From sequence record NC_111505.1: a stretch of DNA of 64,000 nucleotides. One strand, written 5' to 3'. Source of the DNA: a phage. Positions 1,644 through 14,254 of the stretch are shown one piece after another. A program made the position numbers and the translations under genes. Below the pieces are notes generated by a model, which saw nothing but the letters and a program-made list of their open reading frames with translations, had not been told where the DNA came from and ran no database searches. Numbering within the stretch: the first letter of the stretch is position 1; each line of letters begins with the position of its first letter.

Positions 1644-4600
1644 TTAGTCGTGAGACTCGTTCCAAGGTCCCTGGAAGCTAGAGTTTGAACGACTTACTAC
1701 AACGGTAGGACAGGATATTGTGATGCCTGTCACGTTCCCTGTTGACCACGGCGTGTAAATTTCAACGATAATGTCTATGGTTTGTTCTCCAAGGCCTGTT
1801 ATCCCGATAGCGCACATACCGTCATTGTCGTTTCCGTACTTCTTGCCAGCAAGGAGCTGATGACCAGCTATCCACGCATTCAGTTGAGAGTTGGCACGCG
1901 TACCGTTCAGTTTAAAGAAGAATGTTACGTTCTTACCTTGGCCTTGTACGTTGTCCACATATCTCCATCTCCAACGGCAAACCCTTTGCTGGGAGTTATA
2001 TACTGGAGCACAATCCCCGTAAGTCCTGTGTGCAACAATTGCACCTTCGAACTGGTTAGCGCGGATAACAGAAGCTTCTACACGACCACGGAAGGTACCT
2101 CCGGTTGCATCTATGGTGCCTCTAAAGCTACCATTATTGGCATAAACATCCCCACGGAAGGTACCACTAGTGGCGTTAACTGCCCCTGTGAAGTTACCAG
2201 AACTGGCGTTGATGTTGCCTTTCACCCACACATCCATAAATTGGGCGTGCCCGTTCTTGTTAATATACCAACCGTATTTATGGTACCCGTTGCCATCGTA
2301 GTTGTTTGACGAAATTTCTTGTGCAATCTTGGCAGAAGAGATCGTCCCGTTCTCTATAAAAGCATCTTTCAAGAACGCTTGGTTGTTCTTGATTGCGAAA
2401 GCAAGGGTTGCTGTTCCATTTCCAGGGTTGTATACCGCAAAGTTGTTTGCACTAACCATGAAGTATGATTGTACTTGGCCTCCAGAACCTTCCATGCCCA
2501 ATTGGATACCTGCCACATACTTATTCCCTGCGGAGTCTACCTGTATTTTTGTGCCCCATTGAGCATTTACTTTGCCCTCTAAGTCGGTCACAGCCTTAGA
2601 TGTTGTAGCCACTGCAGCTCTTAGCTCTGATACATCCCCAACATCATCAATGATCTCCTGCTTAGCAACAGCAAGTTCTTGACGAATAGCTGACGCTGTG
2701 CCATTAATAAGATCCACGGTTGCTTTGTTGGTATCGGAGATTGTAGCATCTAGAGCTGTTTTTGTGGAGGTCAGTTTACCATCCAAATCCGCAATCGCCT
2801 GTTTGTTGGTAGAAATCTCCCCACGTGCAGAAGTTATCTGCTCCGACAGTGCGGAGGTTTTCTGATTCAACAAATCTGTGGTGGCCTTGTTGGTATTGGC
2901 AATCAGGGTATTGAGATCAGTTTTTGCGGTAGTTATCTTACCATCAAGGGTGGTATAGTTCTTAGATACTGTCGCGTTTGTCTGACTGATCTTTTGATCC
3001 AGAGTTTCAGAGGTCCTGTTGAGAAGATCCACTGTCGCCTGGTTGGTGCTTAAGATGCTTGCATCAAGTTCCGTTCTCTGGGTATTGATCTTGCCATCTA
3101 GAGTTTTATCTCCAGCAAGGTATCCGCTCTCCACACCACTTATTTGTTCTACCAACTCCCCTTTGGCTGCAACCAATTTCTCGTCCAAAGCCTCTGTCTT
3201 TTTGTTCAGAAGATCAGTGGTTGCTTTATTGGTTGTCTCAATCAGGGATGCCAATCTTCCACTTTCAGTGTTCAAATCGTTGGTGAACTTGTTCTGTGCA
3301 GCAACAAGTTTCCTATCCAGCGCTGTGATATTGCCATTGACATCCTCAAACTTCTGAGTTGTCTCTGTAACTACCGCACCTATTCTGTCTCCAAGTTGCT
3401 GGAATGCCTCATCTACCCTACCATCCATGTACCTGTTAAGTTCTGTGACACGATTTTCAACCTCTTCAATAGAGGAATCCAAAGTGCTCATCAACTCTTT
3501 ATAAGTTTCTGTCTTTTTGAATTCAGCATCTATCTGAGGCATCAAATCCTCAATAGAGGTGTAGCAGCGTGCAGCGCATTCTACAAACTGAGAACTGCCA
3601 AAAGCGTTTGTGGTCCGAATATACCAATAATAAACCTTATCGTTCTGCAGACCTTCAGATGTCCAAGTTGAACCAACACCCATACGGGTGGCGTTTGAAG
3701 TAACGGTTGCATCACTGGTGTCGGGCAACCTTGTCATACCGGATGTCCAAAAGTCATACTGGGTGCTTACACTTGCCAAATCCCTGCTGTGTGGAATCAA
3801 GGTGATAGCAAAGTATCCCTGCTTAACCTCTACAGAAACCGGAGCCTCAGGTGCCTGAATGTTAAACTCGCAGTACGCTTCTGGAGATACACCACCTTTA
3901 TAAGATGTTGCAACCACGGTTGCTGTGTATGACCCTTTGGTCAAACCTTCTACTCTGACAAACTGCTCAACTGTCTGTGCTGTCCAAACAATCTCTCCGT
4001 TCTTTCTTACCTGCACAATATTTTGAGCGTAAGTCCCAACGTTGTCCCAAGCTAAAACACCGTGAGTTACTTCTCCAGCTTGGAGAACGGAATATCTGAA
4101 GTTTTGCGGTTGAGCTACACCAGATGGGGATATCGGAATATCTACATCGCCAGAATCCGGAAGTTGCCCTGTGGCATCATTCCACTCTTTAGCATCTTGA
4201 CGAAGTTTTACCTTGACACCGCCCTTTTTGGTGAACTCCCATTCAAGAACCCTCATTTCTTGGCCCACTATACCAATACTTGGGAGGTCCATTGTAACAT
4301 AACGGCCAGGCTTAAATTTAAAACCTCGCATATTGCAGGTGACTTCAATAATCCTGCCAGCTCTAGCACGTCTTAAGAAGATTGCAGAAACACGTTGAGC
4401 TTGATAAGGACTGGTAACAAAGCGATAGTCTATATCGATTATCTTTCTTTCTCCATCCTTCTCTATCCACTCTGGTACAAACACTGATGGGAAATCTGTT
4501 TCAGAATACCCTTTGGTCGGACTAGTGAATCTGCCAGTTATTGTGTTAGATCTTTTGTCAAATGAGGCTTCCGGATAGATCTTAACCTCACCACAGACAC

Positions 4601-5483
4601 AGTCCTCCCTCAATGTCATTGTTGCCGGACCATAGTATGCACCAACCAGCAAACCATACTTACCAGCAACATAACTAAGGTCTGCACCGCAAGCTTTCAG
4701 CATTTCTGCCATAATACTTGCTGGGGCCTCATCCATGTCAAACTCACCGTTAATGGTGTAACGTCGCTCACTGGTGCCGTCAGCGTTTTTTACCGCCTCG
4801 TCGCATATGTTGGCAGCCTCCCTGAAGGACTCCCAGTTGATGGTTTCGTCAGGACATTTAAGGTATGTTCTTAAATAGTCCAGAATCACCAAGGCAGCGT
4901 TATTGGTATACACCTCTTTACTGGTGCGAGGATCATAGCATTTTTTACCAACCTTAACGAGTGTTACGTTTGGCAACCCAAAAGGAAACTTGTTAGGGTC
5001 AAACCTAAAGCTGACCCGTAGCCAACTGATCCCTCTGCCTATCATGTCCGGTGACCACGATGGGCAGTGTGTTCCCATAAAAGGATCAGAGGTTTTTCTG
5101 TCGTTATGTAGCTCCCACGATACCAAATCCCCATACGAAGAAATAGGATTACCGTCGATAAGTATATCTTCTATACCTTCTAGAGGGTGATTGGCAAGAA
5201 CAATGGCACAATGGAGGGTTCTGTCTCTATCCTGCTCCAAAAATGCAAGCAATCCAGATGTACGTGTCTTCCCATATACTACAGAACAAGGTGCAGCAGA
5301 AGATCTAAGAAGCTTTTGCCTATCTTGCTGACTTCTGTAAGATTTGTTACCCTCGAAAATCTTATCCAGAGTTCTGGTGGTAACAGTGTTCAGGCTGTCA
5401 GCCAGAGCTGCCTTGGATGCGTTCCAGTCATAGCTTGAAGATCTTGCAGAAGCAACGATGTTATCAATCATTGCAATTGGCAT
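1644..5483 (-). CDS. large tail fibre / host-specificity-type structural protein
   Basis: 1279-aa ORF. Central segment has degenerate ~40-aa repeats (TNKATTDLLNKKTEALDEKL.../DGKINTQRTELDASILSTNQATVDLLN...) typical of a coiled-coil shaft; C-terminus carries short Gly-rich repeats (GNFTGAVNATSGTFRGDVYANNGSFRGTIDATGGTFRG). Confidence 0.6.
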   Translation of the reverse strand: MPIAMIDNIVASARSSSYDWNASKAALADSLNTVTTRTLDKIFEGNKSYRSQQDRQKLLRSSAAPCSVVYGKTRTSGLLAFLEQDRDRTLHCAIVLANHPLEGIEDILIDGNPISSYGDLVSWELHNDRKTSDPFMGTHCPSWSPDMIGRGISWLRVSFRFDPNKFPFGLPNVTLVKVGKKCYDPRTSKEVYTNNAALVILDYLRTYLKCPDETINWESFREAANICDEAVKNADGTSERRYTINGEFDMDEAPASIMAEMLKACGADLSYVAGKYGLLVGAYYGPATMTLREDCVCGEVKIYPEASFDKRSNTITGRFTSPTKGYSETDFPSVFVPEWIEKDGERKIIDIDYRFVTSPYQAQRVSAIFLRRARAGRIIEVTCNMRGFKFKPGRYVTMDLPSIGIVGQEMRVLEWEFTKKGGVKVKLRQDAKEWNDATGQLPDSGDVDIPISPSGVAQPQNFRYSVLQAGEVTHGVLAWDNVGTYAQNIVQVRKNGEIVWTAQTVEQFVRVEGLTKGSYTATVVATSYKGGVSPEAYCEFNIQAPEAPVSVEVKQGYFAITLIPHSRDLASVSTQYDFWTSGMTRLPDTSDATVTSNATRMGVGSTWTSEGLQNDKVYYWYIRTTNAFGSSQFVECAARCYTSIEDLMPQIDAEFKKTETYKELMSTLDSSIEEVENRVTELNRYMDGRVDEAFQQLGDRIGAVVTETTQKFEDVNGNITALDRKLVAAQNKFTNDLNTESGRLASLIETTNKATTDLLNKKTEALDEKLVAAKGELVEQISGVESGYLAGDKTLDGKINTQRTELDASILSTNQATVDLLNRTSETLDQKISQTNATVSKNYTTLDGKITTAKTDLNTLIANTNKATTDLLNQKTSALSEQITSARGEISTNKQAIADLDGKLTSTKTALDATISDTNKATVDLINGTASAIRQELAVAKQEIIDDVGDVSELRAAVATTSKAVTDLEGKVNAQWGTKIQVDSAGNKYVAGIQLGMEGSGGQVQSYFMVSANNFAVYNPGNGTATLAFAIKNNQAFLKDAFIENGTISSAKIAQEISSNNYDGNGYHKYGWYINKNGHAQFMDVWVKGNINASSGNFTGAVNATSGTFRGDVYANNGSFRGTIDATGGTFRGRVEASVIRANQFEGAIVAHRTYGDCAPVYNSQQRVCRWRWRYVDNVQGQGKNVTFFFKLNGTRANSQLNAWIAGHQLLAGKKYGNDNDGMCAIGITGLGEQTIDIIVEIYTPWSTGNVTGITISCPTVVVSRSNSSFQGPWNESHD

Positions 5484-5920
5484 TAATACCTCCAGACATC
5501 AACAACGATAGAATCTTTCATATCGAACGTAAAGATCCCTTTATCACCTTTCGCCCAAATCTGGTTGTTCCAGAACACACCAGCGGTGAGGCCGTTCAGA
5601 CCTTCGAAAATAACAATATCACCACGCTGAACCTGTTTAGGAGTATCCAGTCGAGTCAAAAAGAGATCAAAAATAGTAGGCAGGTGTGTGGTTTTGAAAC
5701 GGAGCATGCACCATCTCTTGCTTTCCAACTCTGTTTTATACGTTCCTTCAAAGTTAGAAAGAAAATCTGTTCCGTATTGGGCATCAACACATTTAGCCGC
5801 AAAAGTGCAACAATCGTGGAATCCCCATTCAAACGGGGCGGTGGCTTCTTCGTCAAATACTTTCCACAATTTTTCTTGCCAGTCTACTAAACGAGGGTGT
5901 GTGCTCATTAAACCTCCCAA
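5483..5920 (-). CDS. hypothetical tail-associated protein
   Basis: 145-aa ORF coupled to the neighbouring tail genes (shares the boundary nucleotide with the fibre gene). Contains an HDCC motif; function not assignable by eye. Confidence 0.45.
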   Translation of the reverse strand: MGGLMSTHPRLVDWQEKLWKVFDEEATAPFEWGFHDCCTFAAKCVDAQYGTDFLSNFEGTYKTELESKRWCMLRFKTTHLPTIFDLFLTRLDTPKQVQRGDIVIFEGLNGLTAGVFWNNQIWAKGDKGIFTFDMKDSIVVDVWRY

Positions 5921-6474
5921 ATGATCGGGCGGCTCGCCACCTGATCCACATATTTAAAAAATCTGTCATTATCGTTTCTTGAGCTATGGCTTTCCTCTGT
6001 GTATCGGTAAGGAAAACCTCTTAACCAGCTGTTGAAGATGGAAGAGATGGATATGGACAAAGCACTATTCTCCCCTGTCTGAATAGCCATGTCTGTTATA
6101 AGGCCGTCAAACAAGCCATTAGTTGTGACAGGTAAACCATTCTCCATAGCGGTGATATATAACGTGGCACGGCAACCAGAGTACTCCGTCTTCAGCAGAT
6201 CGCCAACATATTTAGGATCAAACCCGTTCAATGTTGCTACCACAGATCCGAAGTTGGTGGCATCTTTCTCAGACACAGCAGTCAATGTTGCTGATCCACC
6301 TATCCCTATAAAATGTTGCCCCTCAATCACCACAACACCAGTTCCTGAGCACACCCTGACAGTCCCTGTTGGTAGCTCTAACTTTGCAGCAATTAAGATT
6401 TCAACACCATCAAGCTCTAACTTTTCAAGAAATAAATTATCTAATGGCGCTCTTATCATCTTAGAAATCCTCAA
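5908..6474 (-). CDS. hypothetical tail-associated protein
   Basis: 188-aa ORF overlapping its neighbours by a few nt on the same strand within the tail-fibre block. Confidence 0.45.
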   Translation of the reverse strand: MRISKMIRAPLDNLFLEKLELDGVEILIAAKLELPTGTVRVCSGTGVVVIEGQHFIGIGGSATLTAVSEKDATNFGSVVATLNGFDPKYVGDLLKTEYSGCRATLYITAMENGLPVTTNGLFDGLITDMAIQTGENSALSISISSIFNSWLRGFPYRYTEESHSSRNDNDRFFKYVDQVASRPIIWEV

Positions 6475-7051
6475 AGAAGTTGATAACTATATTGTCACCT
6501 TTCTGCATAGCATCAACCTTTTGCTTAATTTTATAAAGATCCCTGATATGAAATCTACCCTTCGGAGATTGAGTTATTATCTTCATGGTATCCCCTGCGG
6601 CAATAGGTTTCCTAAGTCTTGGGGATATGTTTATAACAGCGGCCCCAACACCATCACTTCGTACTGATGCTGTCACCACTTTCAACTCATCATTGACAGA
6701 TATTTTATCCCCAGCCCTGGCTATATCCCTGTTGGGCTCCCAACCAACCGTCTTCAAAAAATCGTCGTTACCAGTCGGTCCGAGAGCGATTGGCTCGTTG
6801 GAGGTCACTGAATGCCCATAAGCCTTGATGAGAAAAATGTTTCCATCTTTGTAAACCTGATCAACAAAACTTTTAAGCTCCAACAACTGAGATTCACTGA
6901 TATTGGAAACCGTCAAAGTACCTTTCCAGTTAGGTGTGGCATAGGTTACTTTTTGCGTCTTACCTGTAAACGGGCTTTTAAATGTAACGATGTCTGCCAG
7001 TAACTCCAATCTAATATCTGGGAGGTATCTAGGCCTTTCCCATAAAAACAT
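6461..7051 (-). CDS. hypothetical tail-associated protein
   Basis: 196-aa ORF, first gene downstream of the terminator that follows the 1266-aa fibre gene. Confidence 0.45.
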   Translation of the reverse strand: MFLWERPRYLPDIRLELLADIVTFKSPFTGKTQKVTYATPNWKGTLTVSNISESQLLELKSFVDQVYKDGNIFLIKAYGHSVTSNEPIALGPTGNDDFLKTVGWEPNRDIARAGDKISVNDELKVVTASVRSDGVGAAVINISPRLRKPIAAGDTMKIITQSPKGRFHIRDLYKIKQKVDAMQKGDNIVINFFEDF

Positions 7052-7112
7052 TGTGCCTCCAGGTTAAACAAATATGATAGTTATTTTACCAGATTTTAAG
7101 TTAATACGCAAT

Positions 7113-7143
7113 ACAAACAAAAAGCCCCCGCCGAAGCGAGGGC
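7113..7143 (-). terminator. rho-independent terminator after 1266-aa tail fibre gene
   Basis: GC-rich hairpin GCCC(C)CGC-CGAA-GCG(A)GGGC (7124..7143) with a minus-strand U-run (plus A-run 7113..7123), directly 3' of the gene ending at 7151. Confidence 0.45.
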
Positions 7144-7150
7144 AAAACAG

Positions 7151-10100
7151 TTACTTCAGTTTCTCTTGCAACTCAGTAACAACCTCCGTCAATTTTTTAA
7201 CCTGCTCCTCAAGGGCGGTTATTTTATCATCCTGTTCCCTGCAAACCTGGACAAGCAAACCTGTTACAGCTGCGTAGTCAACGTTATAGAACCTTTCCTC
7301 GGTCATCAAAGGAATGCCGTCTTGAGTAGGACCTTCTATTTCCTTCCTTTTCACGAAAGACCCTACTGCCTCTGGCAATGCTTCCATAACCTCTTGAGCA
7401 ATCACGCCTGCATAAGGCATACCATTCTCTTTCAAGGTGTAGGTATAGCCATTCATCTTCCTGATAGCTTCCAGCGCGTCAGGTATGACCTCTATATTAT
7501 CCTTCAGATCCCTATCAGAACTTTGACTAACAGTGGTACATACTACCGCACCGTTGACAGCAAAATATCTTGACTTGGCCTCATCTGCCTTGGCCCCACA
7601 GTGGAATACCCAGCTGCCGGTTGTTGAGTTATCACCTATCTGAAACTCCAGCACGTTCTTCCTATCTGCGCCATTGCCCCAATAGTACAACCTGCCTGTA
7701 TTAGAAGGCATGTTGGAAGTGTTGGTAACATCCGCTCCACCACCTGTGTGTATTGTAAACTCTGGTTCAAGATTGGAGCCTTGAGTTTTTAAAGTGATAC
7801 CCTTACCACCTAGCTGCTGCCAATGGCCCCATGTGAAAACACCACCTATCGTTGTTCCATAACGTAGGAATTTTTCTCCAAGGTACGATATATATTCCTG
7901 TACGCAACTTTCTGGAACGTTGGCGTAGTTCCTGTATACGATAAGCGTACCTGCCTGGGAACATGGGTAGTTTCTATCAGGTGTGGCTTGAGCATTGGCC
8001 TCCTGATGATAAAAACCCTCCCTATCTCCTTTGTAGTCGTTAAGGTCATTAGTTCCCAACCCTTGACCACGGTGCTGAATAACTTTGTTCCACGCTCTGT
8101 GGTTACCCTGCTCTATGGAACGGGTGTACAGCTGATCTAAACGACCTGCCATCTGGAAAGCATAGTTTCCAGAAAACGCCACAGACAACCCGCCAACAAC
8201 CATTGAACCTTCAGGCCCGTTGACGTTGCCAGCCAGTATTTTGGACGGATTATTATTTCCGAACTGGTTGTTCCAGTCTGCACCTGTGTGGCATACAAAA
8301 CCACCAGGGGCCGAGAAAGTACCGTCTTTGTTGAAATTGTAGAATCTGTGAGCGGAACCTACAACATCACGAACAATAACTTGACCAGCTTCTGGAGTAG
8401 ACCTGAACTCTGCTTGACCTTGGAGGCCAGCACCATTACCACATTTAGAGGTAAACGTACCGTTAGTAAGATCATCTGTCCCATCTGATGCACACTGGAA
8501 TCCTGCATTAGAGAATAACGCCTTTCTAGGACTGCCGTAGCACAAATAGTCAATACCGTCAGCCCATAGTTCGACTTTAGGCATGTTCATTTTGCTCATC
8601 ACCGCATAGCGTTCAGCAGTGCCTATATAGTGCCACTGTGTGCCGCCGCCAGTGTAGAACCCAGAGGTACCTTTGAAGTCAACAATAGGTCTGGTGTTGG
8701 TATTGTTATCTCCAAGAACAGCCAGATTTAAATCTGCTGACTGGAGAGGTGCAACGAACTTAACACCGTCCTGATTGTTTGTTACAGAGCCGACTTGATA
8801 ATCTTGCTCTCTGGTAAACACTTCGACAACATTTCTACTTGCGTATATGCTGACAGGGAAAGCACGAGCCTCCGCATAGAAAGCAACATACTCTTGTTTA
8901 CCCCTTGTTGGAGCAACCATCCCAAGAAGTGCTTTTTCATTTTGATAGAAATTCACTACCCCGTAGAAAGAGTCTCCTCTATCTGTCCAACCACCAGTCC
9001 TATAGTGGCACTGTAAGGTGGCGCAGTTCATAGGGTCACCACCGGATGACGATCTGGTGACTAGGGTAATATCAGTGCCAGTTGCTGGAGCATAGTACGG
9101 ATCTGTTCTAACGATGATTGGGTAATATTTCCCATCTTCCATACCTGCAGTTCTTGGCAGTGTTAAGAAATCTTTGACACCCGCAGCTATAGGAACTTTG
9201 AACAGATTCTGAGCATCTGCCAGGGTTGTAGCCCCAGTACCACCCGCTGCCTGAGGTAAAGGTTCCCACTTGGCCTTCCGGTTGTTATAAACACCCCATT
9301 CCAGAGTACCATTACCGGATTCATCCATACCGCCATCCCAGACGACCATCTTAGCGGCTTTCTTGGAACCCCAGAACCCTCTTTCTGCCCCTGAACTACG
9401 AATCCATTCCCCAAGTCCCCAGTTTGTCAGCTGACCAGTGAGATCCCCGACCTGCATGTACTTAGGACAATCTAATACACCATCTTCACGGAATCCTAAA
9501 TACCGATGAGTTTCAGATCCTTTTGCGCCTTTGTGCAGGTGGACTGTTAACCAAGTCTTATTGTCGTTTCTTACCTCGGAGTAGATCCTATAACCATGCT
9601 CAAGAACACCATCAGCGTCATATTTATCTCCATGGAGAATACCTGAAGCATTTTTAACATCTCCTGAGTATTGAGCTAAGTAAAGGTGCCCGAAAGCAGG
9701 GGAGTTGTTTTTACCAAGGCCGATATGAGATCTGAAGGTGTCATCATTACGAGGTCTGACCATCGGCTGCCATGCAGTCCACTGGTTTGTGTTGGCCTGA
9801 TAGGTTCTCAAATACCAAACATCCACGTTAGAGAATGGATAGTATTCCTGACGACAACCTGTACCACCGTTAGCATTGTTCTGCCAAACAATCAAGTGAC
9901 CAGCACCAGAACCTGCAGGATAACCATTTGCCTCAGTTGCATTAGCAGTCATCGGCTGATAGTATATGCCGTCCTGATTACCAGTCAAGTTATTGATATT
10001 GAAATTTGCCTCAAGGGCTGCACGTTGCTTATAGAAAGCACCGATATTGATACGGACTCCAGCGGCATCTCTGGCACCTGTACCACCTTGCTCTATAGCA

Positions 10101-10951
10101 AGAGGTTGCCACGAGGCTGTTTGCTGGTTCCACATACCCCAACGGCCTGCTGCATCAAGCTGCAAGTACCCTGCCGTGTTTAAATCATCTCCAGCACGGA
10201 TAACTGTTCTTGTTGGGTTGTTTGCCTCCAGGCGTTTAAATTCATCACGAAGTGCTATTCTTTTTGTTGTTGCTACACCGTTGGTTACTGCAATGGTATA
10301 CATGGCTCCTGAGGTAGCGCCACGGAAAATACCATCAACAGTTGTAGTATCACGACGAGATACCACACCGTTCAGAAATTTTTCACCAGCTGCTTCAGAA
10401 GGGTAGTTAGTGGTTCTTCCCTCTTCAATAACTGCAGGGCCAACAAAGTTGACAAGGTGAATGACATCGCCTACAGTATGCACAGTACCAAAATCTACCC
10501 GCTGTGCAAGCGCTTTAGCATCGTTGGCTGTCTGAACCGTAACATCCATTACATCCTGGACAGACTGCCCTTCAGCTGTCATGATCATAGATGCGCCAAT
10601 GGTAGACTCCAGCTCCTCCCTTAAGGACGGGTCTGTATATACCATCCATGCAGCATCGGTAATCCCACCATCAGCGTACGGTGAAGACAGTGCAGGAACA
10701 GTGTGCGGAAATTCGCCTTTCCAACGCAGGTAGAGGTCTTCCTCTTCGAAGTAGGCAAAATCCATTGGGCCGTTTAACTTACCACCTTCCTTAAAGGAGA
10801 TTACATGAGAAACAGTCCCATCCACATGGACAACATCGCCAATTTTTACACGACGGGTCAGGTCTGGTTGTTGAACAACCAGGTAATCATCCTCTGTCAC
10901 TGCGGTAGTGGCAGGAAGAGATTCAATTCTGACAACTTTAATATCAGCCAT
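7151..10951 (-). CDS. tail fibre with C-terminal intramolecular-chaperone (peptidase S74-like) domain
   Basis: 1266-aa ORF. C-terminal SSDRDLKDNIEVIP...MNGYTYTLK matches the auto-processing intramolecular chaperone motif of endosialidase-type fibres. N-terminal ~95 aa are homologous to the N-terminus of the 13586..14254 protein (DDYLVVQQPDLTRRVKIGDVV vs DDFLVVNQTDGTRKAKIDDVV). Confidence 0.65.
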   Translation of the reverse strand: MADIKVVRIESLPATTAVTEDDYLVVQQPDLTRRVKIGDVVHVDGTVSHVISFKEGGKLNGPMDFAYFEEEDLYLRWKGEFPHTVPALSSPYADGGITDAAWMVYTDPSLREELESTIGASMIMTAEGQSVQDVMDVTVQTANDAKALAQRVDFGTVHTVGDVIHLVNFVGPAVIEEGRTTNYPSEAAGEKFLNGVVSRRDTTTVDGIFRGATSGAMYTIAVTNGVATTKRIALRDEFKRLEANNPTRTVIRAGDDLNTAGYLQLDAAGRWGMWNQQTASWQPLAIEQGGTGARDAAGVRINIGAFYKQRAALEANFNINNLTGNQDGIYYQPMTANATEANGYPAGSGAGHLIVWQNNANGGTGCRQEYYPFSNVDVWYLRTYQANTNQWTAWQPMVRPRNDDTFRSHIGLGKNNSPAFGHLYLAQYSGDVKNASGILHGDKYDADGVLEHGYRIYSEVRNDNKTWLTVHLHKGAKGSETHRYLGFREDGVLDCPKYMQVGDLTGQLTNWGLGEWIRSSGAERGFWGSKKAAKMVVWDGGMDESGNGTLEWGVYNNRKAKWEPLPQAAGGTGATTLADAQNLFKVPIAAGVKDFLTLPRTAGMEDGKYYPIIVRTDPYYAPATGTDITLVTRSSSGGDPMNCATLQCHYRTGGWTDRGDSFYGVVNFYQNEKALLGMVAPTRGKQEYVAFYAEARAFPVSIYASRNVVEVFTREQDYQVGSVTNNQDGVKFVAPLQSADLNLAVLGDNNTNTRPIVDFKGTSGFYTGGGTQWHYIGTAERYAVMSKMNMPKVELWADGIDYLCYGSPRKALFSNAGFQCASDGTDDLTNGTFTSKCGNGAGLQGQAEFRSTPEAGQVIVRDVVGSAHRFYNFNKDGTFSAPGGFVCHTGADWNNQFGNNNPSKILAGNVNGPEGSMVVGGLSVAFSGNYAFQMAGRLDQLYTRSIEQGNHRAWNKVIQHRGQGLGTNDLNDYKGDREGFYHQEANAQATPDRNYPCSQAGTLIVYRNYANVPESCVQEYISYLGEKFLRYGTTIGGVFTWGHWQQLGGKGITLKTQGSNLEPEFTIHTGGGADVTNTSNMPSNTGRLYYWGNGADRKNVLEFQIGDNSTTGSWVFHCGAKADEAKSRYFAVNGAVVCTTVSQSSDRDLKDNIEVIPDALEAIRKMNGYTYTLKENGMPYAGVIAQEVMEALPEAVGSFVKRKEIEGPTQDGIPLMTEERFYNVDYAAVTGLLVQVCREQDDKITALEEQVKKLTEVVTELQEKLK

Positions 10952-10986
10952 TCTTTCTCCTGAAAGGGGGCAAACAGCCCCCTATG

Positions 10987-13584
10987 TTAAAGGTACAATC
11001 CACGGTATTGAGCATAAAGTCCCAGACCGCGAAGGATTTCGCCAGAGTGATAGCCTACCGGATCAGAAACTGCCCAGCAGCCGTTTAAAACATTATCCCC
11101 GTTAATGAAGTGGTGCTTTTGTAGTAACTTCACACAGGCTTCTACAACAATATCTATTTGAGGTATTGTCTCTGAATACCCGCAAAGACCTAGCCAGCAG
11201 CAACCTGCAAGCCATTCACCTACCACCCACATCCTGTCCCCTCTGTCTTGATAAGAATATCCACCAGAGGTGTTAAAGTCTGTAGGGAGATTTCCGGAAT
11301 GAGATGACTGGAATCTGTTGAGGAACCATGCCCATTTCTGGCAGAACAGGAACAGTCTCTCATCAACAGGTTCTTTATGTTTCTTAAGCTCATACAGTGT
11401 GCGGCACGCAGCAACAAAGGCTCTTGATTGGAGTTTAGAGTTATCTACCATCTCCCACCAACCAGTCAACCCCTCATTACCCCTCTGCCATACGTAGCGG
11501 GATGCAACTGGTCCTTCTGTTCTAAATGTGTTATTATACCAAACTTGGGAGTCGTACATAAATCCAATTGTATTTGCCAATCTTTGACGATCTATGTTTT
11601 CCGCACCCATACAGTAGACTACCGGATATTGCATGCCGGGATAGGGCCAATTTGGCCTTTCCTCTAGAAGATAATTCTCCTTATCTATCACCTTTCCGGC
11701 AGGGAACACACCCGGAGTGTGTCTGTATGCGCCTTGCTTGTAGTTTCTGACATAGCAATCACCAACCTTGGCTGTTGATTCTGTCTTGCTTGCCATCCAT
11801 ACACTAAACCAGATCATATAAGCATCTCTGTCTGCAACATAAAATTGCGGCAGCGTGTTGACGCAATACAGATCGAACAAGCCATTGCCTATCTGCCTGT
11901 CGCTCAGGCTGAAATCTACAGAGGTAATTCCTTTAGGGTTAGCAAAGAAAGGTTTAATCTCATCTTCTGTGTGATGAGGTTGTGTCGGGTCTAGTTTAAA
12001 ATCCCCTAGGGTAAGAGTTTCTGTTATCCATTGTCCGTTAGTGGCATATAGATCAGCATACCATAACCAACGGTCTTTGTCAAGAAATTTGACCCTTACC
12101 ATCTCATCATCTGATCGATAAGTTACTGAGTTTAAAGAGATCTCTCTTCCAAAATTGAAAGTTACCTTGCCTCTTGCTATGTTGCAACGGGTGAAGTTGT
12201 CGGAGTGGTTATAAATGTCGGTATCATACTGCATACTAACACTAGCGCCACCGCTTACGACAATGTTTTCCTCTTTTGGTAAGAGATACGGGTTACCATC
12301 TTTACCAACCACCTCTACGAAATCGGTAACCTTGGCAACTGTCTCTGTTACCTCTGCCCCTCCAAAAGGGACACCTATCCTATACTGTTTTTTGTTATTG
12401 TTGCCATCATTAAGAATGAAGTGTGGCTGGAACAGAACCCCTTCTCCTCCGAAATTCATAACAATTTCAGCATCTCTGCCTATCTTGTATGTAGTCCCTT
12501 TTTGGATTATTTCGCAAGGTTGGCGTGCGTTCATTCTAAAATTGATATACCCGTCACTGTCCCTGCTCATGACAGGAACTGTTCCTGCAACAAGACAAGT
12601 ACCATCTGTAAACGGTGCCTTAATCAACGTGGTCTTTCTAAACAGTTTGTCGTAGGCATTTATATCACTGAAATTAAGCAGCTTGTTGTAAGACTGCTTA
12701 AACGCAGTGTAATACTTTTCCTCACCTGTCAAGGTGTAGAGTTGATAACAAGCGTCACACCACATTTCTTCCCCGTCCAACTCTGGGGCTTGATTGTCTG
12801 CAACCACATTTATAGGATTTACAATTACAGGGGATCCAGCAGGTATCACCGATCCACCCTGCTCTTGTGGCAATCTCACACAGTAGGTTACCTTGTGACT
12901 TCCTGTAACACCCTTATCTTGTAATTGGATTGTGCCGAACTCTACAGACGTATGACCACTGTCGGCTATACTACCGTTAGCCCAATAGCGGTTACCATCC
13001 CATGCTATATACCACTCAACCCACCAACTTAATCCGGATGTTGTCCAATCTGGGTTAGCATCTGTGCCACCGTAAACATCGGAGTCTACAGTGTTTCTTC
13101 CTAACACACCGTTATACGCTTGGAATGCCTTGTCCAGGTATTCACCCCATGTTGGAGATCCTGCTGGAATTTTTCCTCTACCATTGGTAAAAGACACCAC
13201 CACATCTTTAAACCCACCGTGTGATGGAACCCCATCTGTGGATAGAGGGTAGTGGGACAATCTTTGCATTTTACTTTCTACTGCATATGCACCCAGAAGA
13301 TGACTATTGTAAGCTTCCCAAGCATCTTTTGCCCTATCCAGATAGAAATCGCTTTTCGATGCCCTATATGCTTCAATGTATCCCAGAATCAACACAGCTT
13401 GGGACTCATGCATTGCCCAATCATTATTTATCTTATTACCTGCCCACCCTGCAGCTATAAGACCATCAGGGTTTACTAGCTTATTTTGTGTAGGGGTGTT
13501 GGTAATACCTGTGTTGTTATCGAGGCACTTCCTGTGCCCCTCAATCATCTGAAATACGTTATCAATGTTGTGTTGAATACGCAT
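10987..13584 (-). CDS. putative tailspike enzymatic subunit (depolymerase-like)
   Basis: 865-aa ORF coupled to the adaptor gene upstream (stop-1 nt-ATG, RBS GGAG). Aromatic-rich sequence suggestive of a polysaccharide-degrading fold; lacks its own N-terminal anchor domain. Enzyme class is inference. Confidence 0.45.
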   Translation of the reverse strand: MRIQHNIDNVFQMIEGHRKCLDNNTGITNTPTQNKLVNPDGLIAAGWAGNKINNDWAMHESQAVLILGYIEAYRASKSDFYLDRAKDAWEAYNSHLLGAYAVESKMQRLSHYPLSTDGVPSHGGFKDVVVSFTNGRGKIPAGSPTWGEYLDKAFQAYNGVLGRNTVDSDVYGGTDANPDWTTSGLSWWVEWYIAWDGNRYWANGSIADSGHTSVEFGTIQLQDKGVTGSHKVTYCVRLPQEQGGSVIPAGSPVIVNPINVVADNQAPELDGEEMWCDACYQLYTLTGEEKYYTAFKQSYNKLLNFSDINAYDKLFRKTTLIKAPFTDGTCLVAGTVPVMSRDSDGYINFRMNARQPCEIIQKGTTYKIGRDAEIVMNFGGEGVLFQPHFILNDGNNNKKQYRIGVPFGGAEVTETVAKVTDFVEVVGKDGNPYLLPKEENIVVSGGASVSMQYDTDIYNHSDNFTRCNIARGKVTFNFGREISLNSVTYRSDDEMVRVKFLDKDRWLWYADLYATNGQWITETLTLGDFKLDPTQPHHTEDEIKPFFANPKGITSVDFSLSDRQIGNGLFDLYCVNTLPQFYVADRDAYMIWFSVWMASKTESTAKVGDCYVRNYKQGAYRHTPGVFPAGKVIDKENYLLEERPNWPYPGMQYPVVYCMGAENIDRQRLANTIGFMYDSQVWYNNTFRTEGPVASRYVWQRGNEGLTGWWEMVDNSKLQSRAFVAACRTLYELKKHKEPVDERLFLFCQKWAWFLNRFQSSHSGNLPTDFNTSGGYSYQDRGDRMWVVGEWLAGCCWLGLCGYSETIPQIDIVVEACVKLLQKHHFINGDNVLNGCWAVSDPVGYHSGEILRGLGLYAQYRGLYL

Positions 13585-13585
13585 C

Positions 13586-14254
13586 TTAGATAGCTCCTGC
13601 GATAATCAGTGCCCCGTACCAAGTTAGCCCGTTGTCGTAGGTTTCCAACTTGAAAATGTCTGTTGCACCAGCTGTAAATGTTAGGATAGGATCTCTTCCG
13701 TAGGACCATTTAACATTACCAGGCCAATAGACTTTGTTGCCGCCAGAGGTCTGAGTAATGCATACGGTTATGGTTCTCGCCACCCCTTCAAGACCTTCTG
13801 TTTGATTTTCAAAAGAGATTGTGGTATTTGAAGTTAGTCGAACCTTAAAGGTATCCGCAACTTCAAGATCCATATCAAGCTGACCACCGATAGATCCGTA
13901 ATCAACTATTCTGCCAGAAGAAGTTGCAGCAAGCTCACCAAAAACAGACCAGGCATTTGCAGACACACCCCCAGCACCCTCTACAGTGGAGTCTGGGAGG
14001 ATTATTTTAGGATAATCCCCGTTCCACGTGTAGTAGCGCTTAGTTTCTGGATCATAAGCAAAGTCCTTCTTGCTCTTAAGATAACCACCCTCTGTGAAAT
14101 AGACTATCTTAGTAATGCTAAGATCGTTGACAACATCGTCAATCTTAGCCTTTCTTGTCCCATCAGTCTGGTTGACAACCAAGAAGTCATCACTCAGGAC
14201 TGTTTCTGCATCTTCAAGATCTGGAATTGGTATTGTAGGATAAGCTACAGCCAT
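13586..14254 (-). CDS. tail fibre adaptor protein sharing the N-terminal anchor domain with the 1266-aa fibre
   Basis: 222-aa ORF; N-terminal ~95 aa align with the N-terminus of the 7151..10951 fibre. Confidence 0.5.
   Translation of the reverse strand: MAVAYPTIPIPDLEDAETVLSDDFLVVNQTDGTRKAKIDDVVNDLSITKIVYFTEGGYLKSKKDFAYDPETKRYYTWNGDYPKIILPDSTVEGAGGVSANAWSVFGELAATSSGRIVDYGSIGGQLDMDLEVADTFKVRLTSNTTISFENQTEGLEGVARTITVCITQTSGGNKVYWPGNVKWSYGRDPILTFTAGATDIFKLETYDNGLTWYGALIIAGAI

Follow-up and report, generated by a model that had tools for sequence, protein, structure and literature searches.

How can a large, enzyme-like protein that has no attachment domain of its own be fixed to a phage particle? 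This question is raised by two adjacent genes, encoding proteins of 222 and 865 amino acids (aa), at positions 10987-14254 of a 64,000-nucleotide (nt) stretch of phage DNA (record NC_111505.1), called the window here. The best explanation of all observations is that the 222-aa protein serves as a modular adaptor with the 865-aa protein as its cargo enzyme, and we give this reading a probability of roughly 0.6. The N-terminal part of the adaptor would be the virion anchor, and its C-terminal domain of ~105 aa (residues ~112-222), which we call Cdom, is the proposed docking module for the enzyme. By length, order and published descriptions, the two proteins and the 1266-aa fibre encoded beside them are rV5 gp43 (222 aa), gp42 (865 aa) and gp41 (1272 aa in rV5), and the presence of gp43 and gp42 in the virion has been published. 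A preliminary description, made from the letters of the window, had listed the three open reading frames (ORFs) correctly, all of them on the minus strand (Table 1).

Pairing of the proposed docking domain with one enzyme family

The evidence that carries the adaptor reading is the gene order in other phages. In four distant metagenomic or prophage contexts, the gene directly upstream of a relative of the 865-aa gene (865 family) ends in a domain that is 28-44% identical to residues ~112-222, and the N-termini of those four upstream proteins (107, 153, 244 and 473 aa) are unrelated. A hidden Markov model (HMM) of Cdom, for which there is no Pfam family, was built and used to scan 85 loci with an 865-family gene. 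Four loci without upstream DNA were left out, and in 80 of the 81 informative ones an ORF ending in Cdom abuts the enzyme gene (E 1e-14 to 1e-48). The sole locus without an upstream Cdom gene belongs to the L086 lineage (an IMG/VR contig of 237 kb), in which the enzyme instead has an N-terminal extension of ~280 aa, perhaps a directly fused alternative anchor. Cdom was not found in the ~280-aa extensions of P0026, P0037 and L086 by BLASTP or by the HMM with filters off, and these three were not counted as fusions with Cdom. When the scan was reversed and started from Cdom patterns, the enzyme gene was immediately downstream in 72/72 loci, a count that is biased towards paired examples because the scan was seeded from a five-sequence Cdom subset already known to be paired.

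The partner genes are variable, and this variability has a clear pattern. The sampled enzymes form 8 clusters at 45% identity (coverage-limited clustering), and the upstream Cdom proteins range from 107 to 563 aa overall and vary in their N-terminal part, which may be Tail_spike_N, phage_tail_N, SPRY, a tail-tube-like segment or nothing; even a single enzyme cluster is paired with adaptors of between 157 and 563 aa. Both parts can also be joined in one chain, as in the natural fusion P0030 (1512 aa), in which a DUF7941-like part, Cdom and an 865-like part follow each other and mirror the gene order of L002. In that locus (7010-11006), a separate DUF7941 gene precedes the pair and another is found further downstream, after a T4-like long fibre that has a gp38 adhesin, and DUF7941 may be a baseplate-proximal connector in this phage type. 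A different order was seen in the 293-aa protein P0067, where the match to the N-terminus of the 865 family comes first (residues 18-195) and a clear Cdom second (190-287, E 9e-25); this metagenomic gene could have been rearranged or misassembled, or the permuted order could be genuine.

From these comparisons, an 'anchor plus enzyme' two-part module is well supported by inference, and in the literature that we searched no description of a conserved anchor-enzyme pairing over many phage groups was apparent. Of the two-piece tailspike proposed in the preliminary description, the two-piece part is strongly backed by the near-obligate synteny of Cdom and the 865 family and by the natural fusion, but the tailspike part is not, since the 865-aa protein is modelled as an alpha/alpha toroid and is structurally no tailspike.

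The enzyme family itself is widespread. An exhaustive HMMER scan gave 92 family cluster representatives among 1.84 billion, and by tblastn the family was detected in 524 phage records, including Vequintavirus, Justusliebigvirus (phi92), PVP-SE1-like phages, ~52-kb Salmonella phages, Salmonella and E. coli phages of at least ~240 kb, Cronobacter GAP52, Erwinia phiEa104-like phages and Vibrio, Aeromonas and Klebsiella phages. The enzymes nearly always start at a conserved Met without an anchor. At the other end, some are extended by further modules, namely a GDSL esterase (P0066), RCC1 repeats (P0015) or Big_2 (P0038), and in P0020 (1557 aa) and P0026 (1795 aa) the 865-family domain is fused to NCTSP_N and TIM-barrel_NCTSP of the N4 gp65 / phi92 gp142 / rV5 gp34 type.

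The shared anchor and the predicted toroid

The 222-aa protein and the fibre have a common N-terminus of 99 residues, as the preliminary description had noticed: residues 8-105 of the former and 7-105 of the latter are 38% identical (E 3e-18, BLASTP), and no other significant match was found between the two proteins by this comparison. Both score above the gathering score (25 bits) of PF18668, the TSP1/Gp66 N-terminal domain Tail_spike_N (Table 1), and the sequence matches of the 222-aa protein in the PDB are the N-terminal regions of CBA120 TSP1/3/4 and of other solved tail proteins. Judged by this homology, the common module is a recognised virion-attachment domain. The gp43 N-terminus had already been likened to that of the P22 tailspike by HHpred, and total-virion mass spectrometry of rV5 detected gp41, gp42 and gp43 (PMC3606486). 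Since all three are found in virion preparations, the proteins with the shared anchor are not mutually exclusive alternatives. A single baseplate site for both, as suggested in the preliminary description, is possible. The mass spectrometry also argues against the absence from virions that had been named as a ground for giving up the earlier proposal: rV5 gp42, to which the 865-aa protein is ~98% identical, was detected in virions.

As had been described, the 865-aa protein lacks this anchor; it is not similar to the 1266-aa protein (best E 1.8) and matches nothing in Pfam or, by sequence, in the PDB. The aromatic richness noted earlier is real and modest, with W+Y+F at 12.9% (W 3.1%); the 222-aa protein has 11.3%, and the values for five other large structural proteins of the window are 8.5-10.3%. 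Taken alone, this richness is weak evidence. More can be learned from the AlphaFold2 model (mean predicted local distance difference test score, pLDDT, 69.8), whose moderate quality can be explained by a shallow multiple sequence alignment of 8 sequences, with 6-7 relatives from word-indexed searches. In this model, long helices at residues 2-22, 59-96, 269-306 and 655-861, mostly with pLDDT 85-95, form the hairpins of an alpha/alpha toroid, which is split by two large beta-rich insertions (~98-268 and ~307-654). The toroid of paired antiparallel helices that defines the six-hairpin glycosidase superfamily is therefore present in the predicted model, and the best fold matches are glycoside hydrolases (GH) and epimerases, with scores of 26.1 for GH48, 25.3 for GH105, 24.6 for GH88, 24.6 for GH8, 24.1 for GH76 and ~22-23 for AGE-type epimerases, over ~300-355 aligned residues at 9-13% identity. 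A canonical trimeric right-handed parallel beta-helix tailspike was considered for the 865-aa protein and rejected on the basis of the same model.

Profile searches point in the same direction. A profile of 34 family members matched a GH76 alpha-1,6-mannanase (E 4e-5), cellobiose 2-epimerases (~8e-4) and a 'six-hairpin glycosidase' (0.034) in the PDB, all of these matches spanning single helix hairpins only (~35 residues for GH76), and Pfam Glyco_hydro_76 was matched by 1/34 relatives (E 0.0049). The 865-aa protein gave no significant profile match to a specific CAZy or Pfam family (GH76, GH8, GH88, GH105, GH48), and no solved structure of its family was found among the PDB sequence and fold matches. 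In 62 full-length relatives that are 23-56% identical, conservation of at least 85% is seen at each of E60, Q62, D270, E272, R341, D502, D678, Q680, W699, R721 and E849, and this set of acidic, polar and aromatic residues would fit an active site or a sugar cleft. We therefore regard the 865-aa protein, as modelled, as a glycan-processing fold outside any defined GH family. The polysaccharide-degrading fold expected in the preliminary description is retained in its general sense, with model and family profile both indicating a GH-type fold, but not as a fold of the beta-helix tailspike type.

Proposed mechanism and rival explanations

From these results, we infer physical binding via Cdom, catalysis, substrate, stoichiometry and docking site as follows. 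The N-terminal ~108 residues of the adaptor would fix gp43 to the baseplate or fibre network, as suggested by domain homology, using an anchor of the CBA120-like tailspike type that is common to the neighbouring 1266-aa fibre, and gp41 would use the same or a homologous site via its homologous anchor. The Cdom, modelled as a beta-sandwich (pLDDT 55-80), would hold gp42, which itself has no anchor; synteny and fusion both argue for this step. By this arrangement, the exchangeable N-module would dock the pair to whichever virion is served, and Cdom would dock the enzyme. As a six-hairpin-type toroid with conserved residues, gp42 would most likely bind and cleave a conserved host surface polysaccharide at adsorption, and strain-specific recognition would be given by the allelically variable fibre. 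With so little space between their genes, adaptor and enzyme would be kept at a constant ratio.

Two points limit the adaptor reading. The model of the 222-aa protein is poor (pLDDT 50.6), which can be ascribed to few homologues in the alignment (4 relatives from a word-indexed search), and some partners consist of Cdom only (from 107 aa), which means that Cdom can act without an anchor and keeps an accessory-subunit or assembly role alive. In such a role, the Cdom protein would be an assembly factor or a non-anchoring accessory subunit that acts in folding, oligomerisation or substrate binding, and genes for Cdom alone (107-143 aa; L005, L057, L074, L076) beside enzymes of 1612-1638 aa with extra C-terminal domains, as well as the close-set or overlapping gene junctions, would agree with it. 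We consider it improbable, however, because the protein with Cdom here, gp43, also has a genuine virion-anchor domain and was detected in virions, and because many different anchor-like N-modules suit tethering better than chaperoning. Known fibre chaperones, moreover, are usually encoded downstream and excluded from the particle. A tail-fibre assembly chaperone (Tfa / gp38 / gp57-like) was also considered for the 222-aa protein and rejected, given the upstream position of the gene, the virion-anchor domain and the presence of gp43 in virions. Tethering and an accessory role are not mutually exclusive.

The two genes could also be mere neighbours, with the 222-aa protein as a self-contained small receptor-binding protein whose Cdom is a lectin-like tip and the 865-aa protein attaching independently. 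Small beta-sandwiches like the modelled Cdom are found in many carbohydrate-binding tips, the BASEL annotation of the 222-aa ortholog is 'sialidase domain protein', a Cdom-like segment is present at the far C-terminus of the 1086-aa fibre family PHROG 3904, and both proteins are in the virion; yet this explanation leaves the order of Cdom and enzyme gene in both scans, across 8 divergent clusters and quite different types of phage and with a freely exchanged N-part, unaccounted for, together with the fusion P0030 and the entry of an anchorless 865-aa protein into the virion, and we hold it to be unlikely. A similarly low probability is given to the view that the adaptor's partner is a non-catalytic structural or binding fibre arm that reuses an alpha/alpha-toroid scaffold. 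The missing Pfam or CAZy assignment and the identity of 9-13% to any enzyme would be expected in that case, a structural viral tail protein of the same fold exists (SSV19 VP4), and the natural fusions place NCTSP-type, GDSL esterase, RCC1 and Big_2 modules at the C-terminus, as expected within a longer fibre. On the other hand, the strong conservation of acidic, polar and aromatic residues among divergent members is typical of an active site or a sugar-binding cleft, and the fused partners are themselves glycan-processing enzymes.

For the substrate of the putative enzyme, a lead comes from the hosts. Vequintavirinae and phi92-like phages rely on the N-acetylmannosamine (ManNAc)-based NGR glycan, as seen from their dependence on wecB and nfrB (PMC8669472), and phi92 gp142 / rV5 gp34, an NCTSP/deacetylase fibre similar to N4 gp65, is regarded as the protein that binds NGR (preprint). 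In phi92, gp140, gp141 and gp142 are encoded consecutively, and this order and the fusions P0020 and P0026 suggest a possible composite appendage of adaptor, six-hairpin protein and NGR fibre. A speculative extension, to which we assign a low probability, is that the NCTSP-type deacetylase fibre (rV5 gp34 / phi92 gp142) is joined with the Cdom adaptor and the six-hairpin protein in one composite fibre, either the unassigned arm of phi92 fibre I or fibre II, and that the six-hairpin protein is the missing NGR depolymerase. Further leads to this idea are the closest sequence-level relatives, which are mannan- or ManNAc-handling scaffolds (GH76, AGE epimerases), and the high conservation of the module next to a variable fibre. 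In a 2026 cryo-electron microscopy paper on phi92, fibre II is unassigned, only the tip of fibre I is inferred, and gp141 and gp142 are never mentioned.

Locus, neighbouring genes and comparison with known systems

The 3.3-kb region is 95-98% identical in nucleotide sequence to 119 phage records, nearly all of them Escherichia Vequintavirus, including rV5, FV3, HMD-6, BASEL phage Bas57 and others, and by this similarity the source phage is a Vequintavirus, an rV5-like E. coli phage. Some GenBank entries (about 18-23, most of them unannotated) that carry the name 'Campylobacter phage' (MG0656xx, host C. jejuni) are 90-98% identical to the E. coli phage analysed here and look like mislabelled or contaminant assemblies. 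All genes of the cluster are on the minus strand within the tail/baseplate operon, in the order tape measure protein, hub and spike, sheath initiator (238 aa), 222 aa, 865 aa, 1266 aa, lambda-like Dit/L/K/J block and Baseplate_J. The orthologs in rV5 and the BASEL Vequintavirus phages are 95-99% identical, with unchanged gene order.

At the 222/865 junction, the letters are ...GCAGGAGCTATC TAA G ATG..., with AGGAG ~10 nt upstream, so the enzyme gene starts one base past the stop behind a ribosome-binding site (RBS), exactly as first described; in most homologous loci, the distance at this junction is about -8 to +12 nt, negative values being overlaps. For the 222-aa gene, a separate GGAG follows the stop codon of the sheath-initiator gene. 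The hairpin between the enzyme and fibre genes was not among the calls of a terminator scan and is at most a weak attenuator or RNA-stability element, by which the ratio of enzyme module to fibre could be set through transcript attenuation or stabilisation. This small hairpin and the strong terminator after the fibre gene make it most likely that the three genes are the end of one transcription unit. Promoter-like matches in the region were no more frequent than in shuffled sequence. The GC skew and AT skew of the window change sign near ~40000, from negative to positive, which is consistent with a coding-strand switch between two divergently oriented gene blocks.

The fibre differs from the pair in its variability. 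It carries an endosialidase chaperone domain (PMC3606486), and its distal ~270 residues (7151-7963), which include the Peptidase_S74 chaperone, have no megablast similarity in many close relatives, the rest of the gene being 90-95% identical; this pattern indicates a cassette exchange of the fibre tip. The fibre gene is covered to at least 80% in only 78/122 records, compared with 95-99% identity of the gp43 and gp42 genes in 104/119 records, and according to the BASEL paper allelic variation is limited to the three largest lateral-fibre genes. A lambda-type tail-tip block (1644-7051), flanked by the fibre gene and Baseplate_J, lies inside this contractile-tail baseplate operon.

Table 1. Features of the adaptor-enzyme locus and its surroundings, in window positions.
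Feature	Position	Strand	Basis or detail
222-aa protein (putative adaptor)	13586..14254	-	ORF + RBS; PHROG 7760 'tail fiber protein' E 8e-120; rV5 gp43 ortholog
N-terminal virion-anchor module of putative adaptor (residues 1-~108)	13931..14254	-	~45-aa N-terminal motif + PF18668 (41 bits, residues 51-105)
Cdom, proposed docking module	13589..13921	-	synteny, HMM; 42-44% identical to partners from unrelated phage contexts
Junction, translational coupling suggested	13585..13600	-	AGGAG, TAA, one base, ATG
865-aa (alpha/alpha)6-toroid glycosidase-like protein (predicted)	10987..13584	-	ortholog of rV5 gp42, phi92 gp141, PVP-SE1 gp50
Small GC-rich hairpin, 6-bp GC-only stem	10966..10982	-	GGGGGC-TGTTT-GCCCCC then TTTC; 35-nt spacer between 865-aa and 1266-aa genes
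1266-aa trimeric fibre	7151..10951	-	ortholog of rV5 gp41
N-terminal anchor of fibre (residues 1-105)	10637-10951	-	PF18668 39.1 bits (residues 46-103)
Peptidase_S74 intramolecular chaperone of fibre (residues 1145-1196)	7364-7519	-	PF13884 54.8 bits
Strong intrinsic-terminator-like hairpin after fibre gene	7124..7143	-	8-bp stem, 7 GC pairs, then TTTTTGTTTG
Dit-like, 196 aa	6461-7051	-	lambda-type tail-tip block
gpL-like, 188 aa	5908-6474	-	lambda-type tail-tip block
gpK-like, 145 aa	5483-5920	-	'cell wall hydrolase protein' in BASEL phage Bas57
J-like, 1279 aa	1644-5483	-	Phage_Tail_Tip + Ig_J domains

Much of this cluster is already catalogued, and its parts, their virion location and the glycosidase prediction are in the literature. 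LL12 gp42 was aligned with nearly the full length of phi92 gp141 (LL12 paper), gp141 was listed as a 'glycosidase' among five phi92 receptor-binding proteins (2017 review, citing Schwarzer 2012), and the BASEL annotation of the 865-aa ortholog reads 'lateral tail fiber protein with glycosidase domains'. According to the BASEL paper, the assignment of genes to fibres is unsettled. In this context the gain is incremental, and a generalisable adaptor-enzyme pairing is a modest but useful addition to a known receptor-binding cluster. A docking domain that always travels with one enzyme family, with its anchor swapped among myo-, sipho- and podovirus-type contexts, would be a concrete assembly rule, and the portable adaptor-cargo pair could be used for engineering. 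The rV5-like and phi92-like phages are also popular candidates for therapy and biocontrol owing to their multi-fibre 'Swiss-army-knife' adsorption apparatus.

Compared with its closest relatives, the locus has the same gene order as rV5 gp43/gp42/gp41 with no sequence-level difference, and the rV5 literature that we found does not assign an adaptor role to gp43. The same pair is formed by phi92 gp140 (157 aa) and gp141 (958 aa) and by PVP-SE1 gp51 and gp50. In phi92, the pair directly follows the sheath-initiator gene as it does here, the gp140 Cdom is 42% identical to that of this phage (E 4e-30), and gp141 homologs of phi92-like phages (Justusliebigvirus) are ~35% identical to the 865-aa protein over the full length. 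In contrast, gp140 keeps only the ~45-aa N-terminal motif without the PF18668 domain, the genes after the pair are those of gp142 (NGR-binding deacetylase fibre) and gp143 (endosialidase) and not that of a gp41-type fibre, and the lambda-type tail-tip block is absent from the equivalent place. No common N-terminus of gp140 and the fibre gp151 was found by BLASTP, and the anchor-sharing pattern is not seen for that pair.

Compared with six-hairpin (alpha/alpha)6 glycoside hydrolases and AGE-family epimerases, the 865-aa protein is only 9-13% identical and has no family-level Pfam match, and its predicted toroid differs from theirs by the two large beta-rich insertions. In the well-known adaptor systems, namely CBA120 TSP1-4, G7C gp66/gp63.1 and the adaptor and tailspikes of K1-5/SP6, the cargo is a tailspike (a trimeric beta-helix or SGNH) that docks by an N-terminal domain of its own. 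In contrast, the proposed docking module of the phage analysed here is a distinct ~105-aa domain outside Pfam, and the cargo differs in being a predicted alpha/alpha toroid without a recognisable docking domain.

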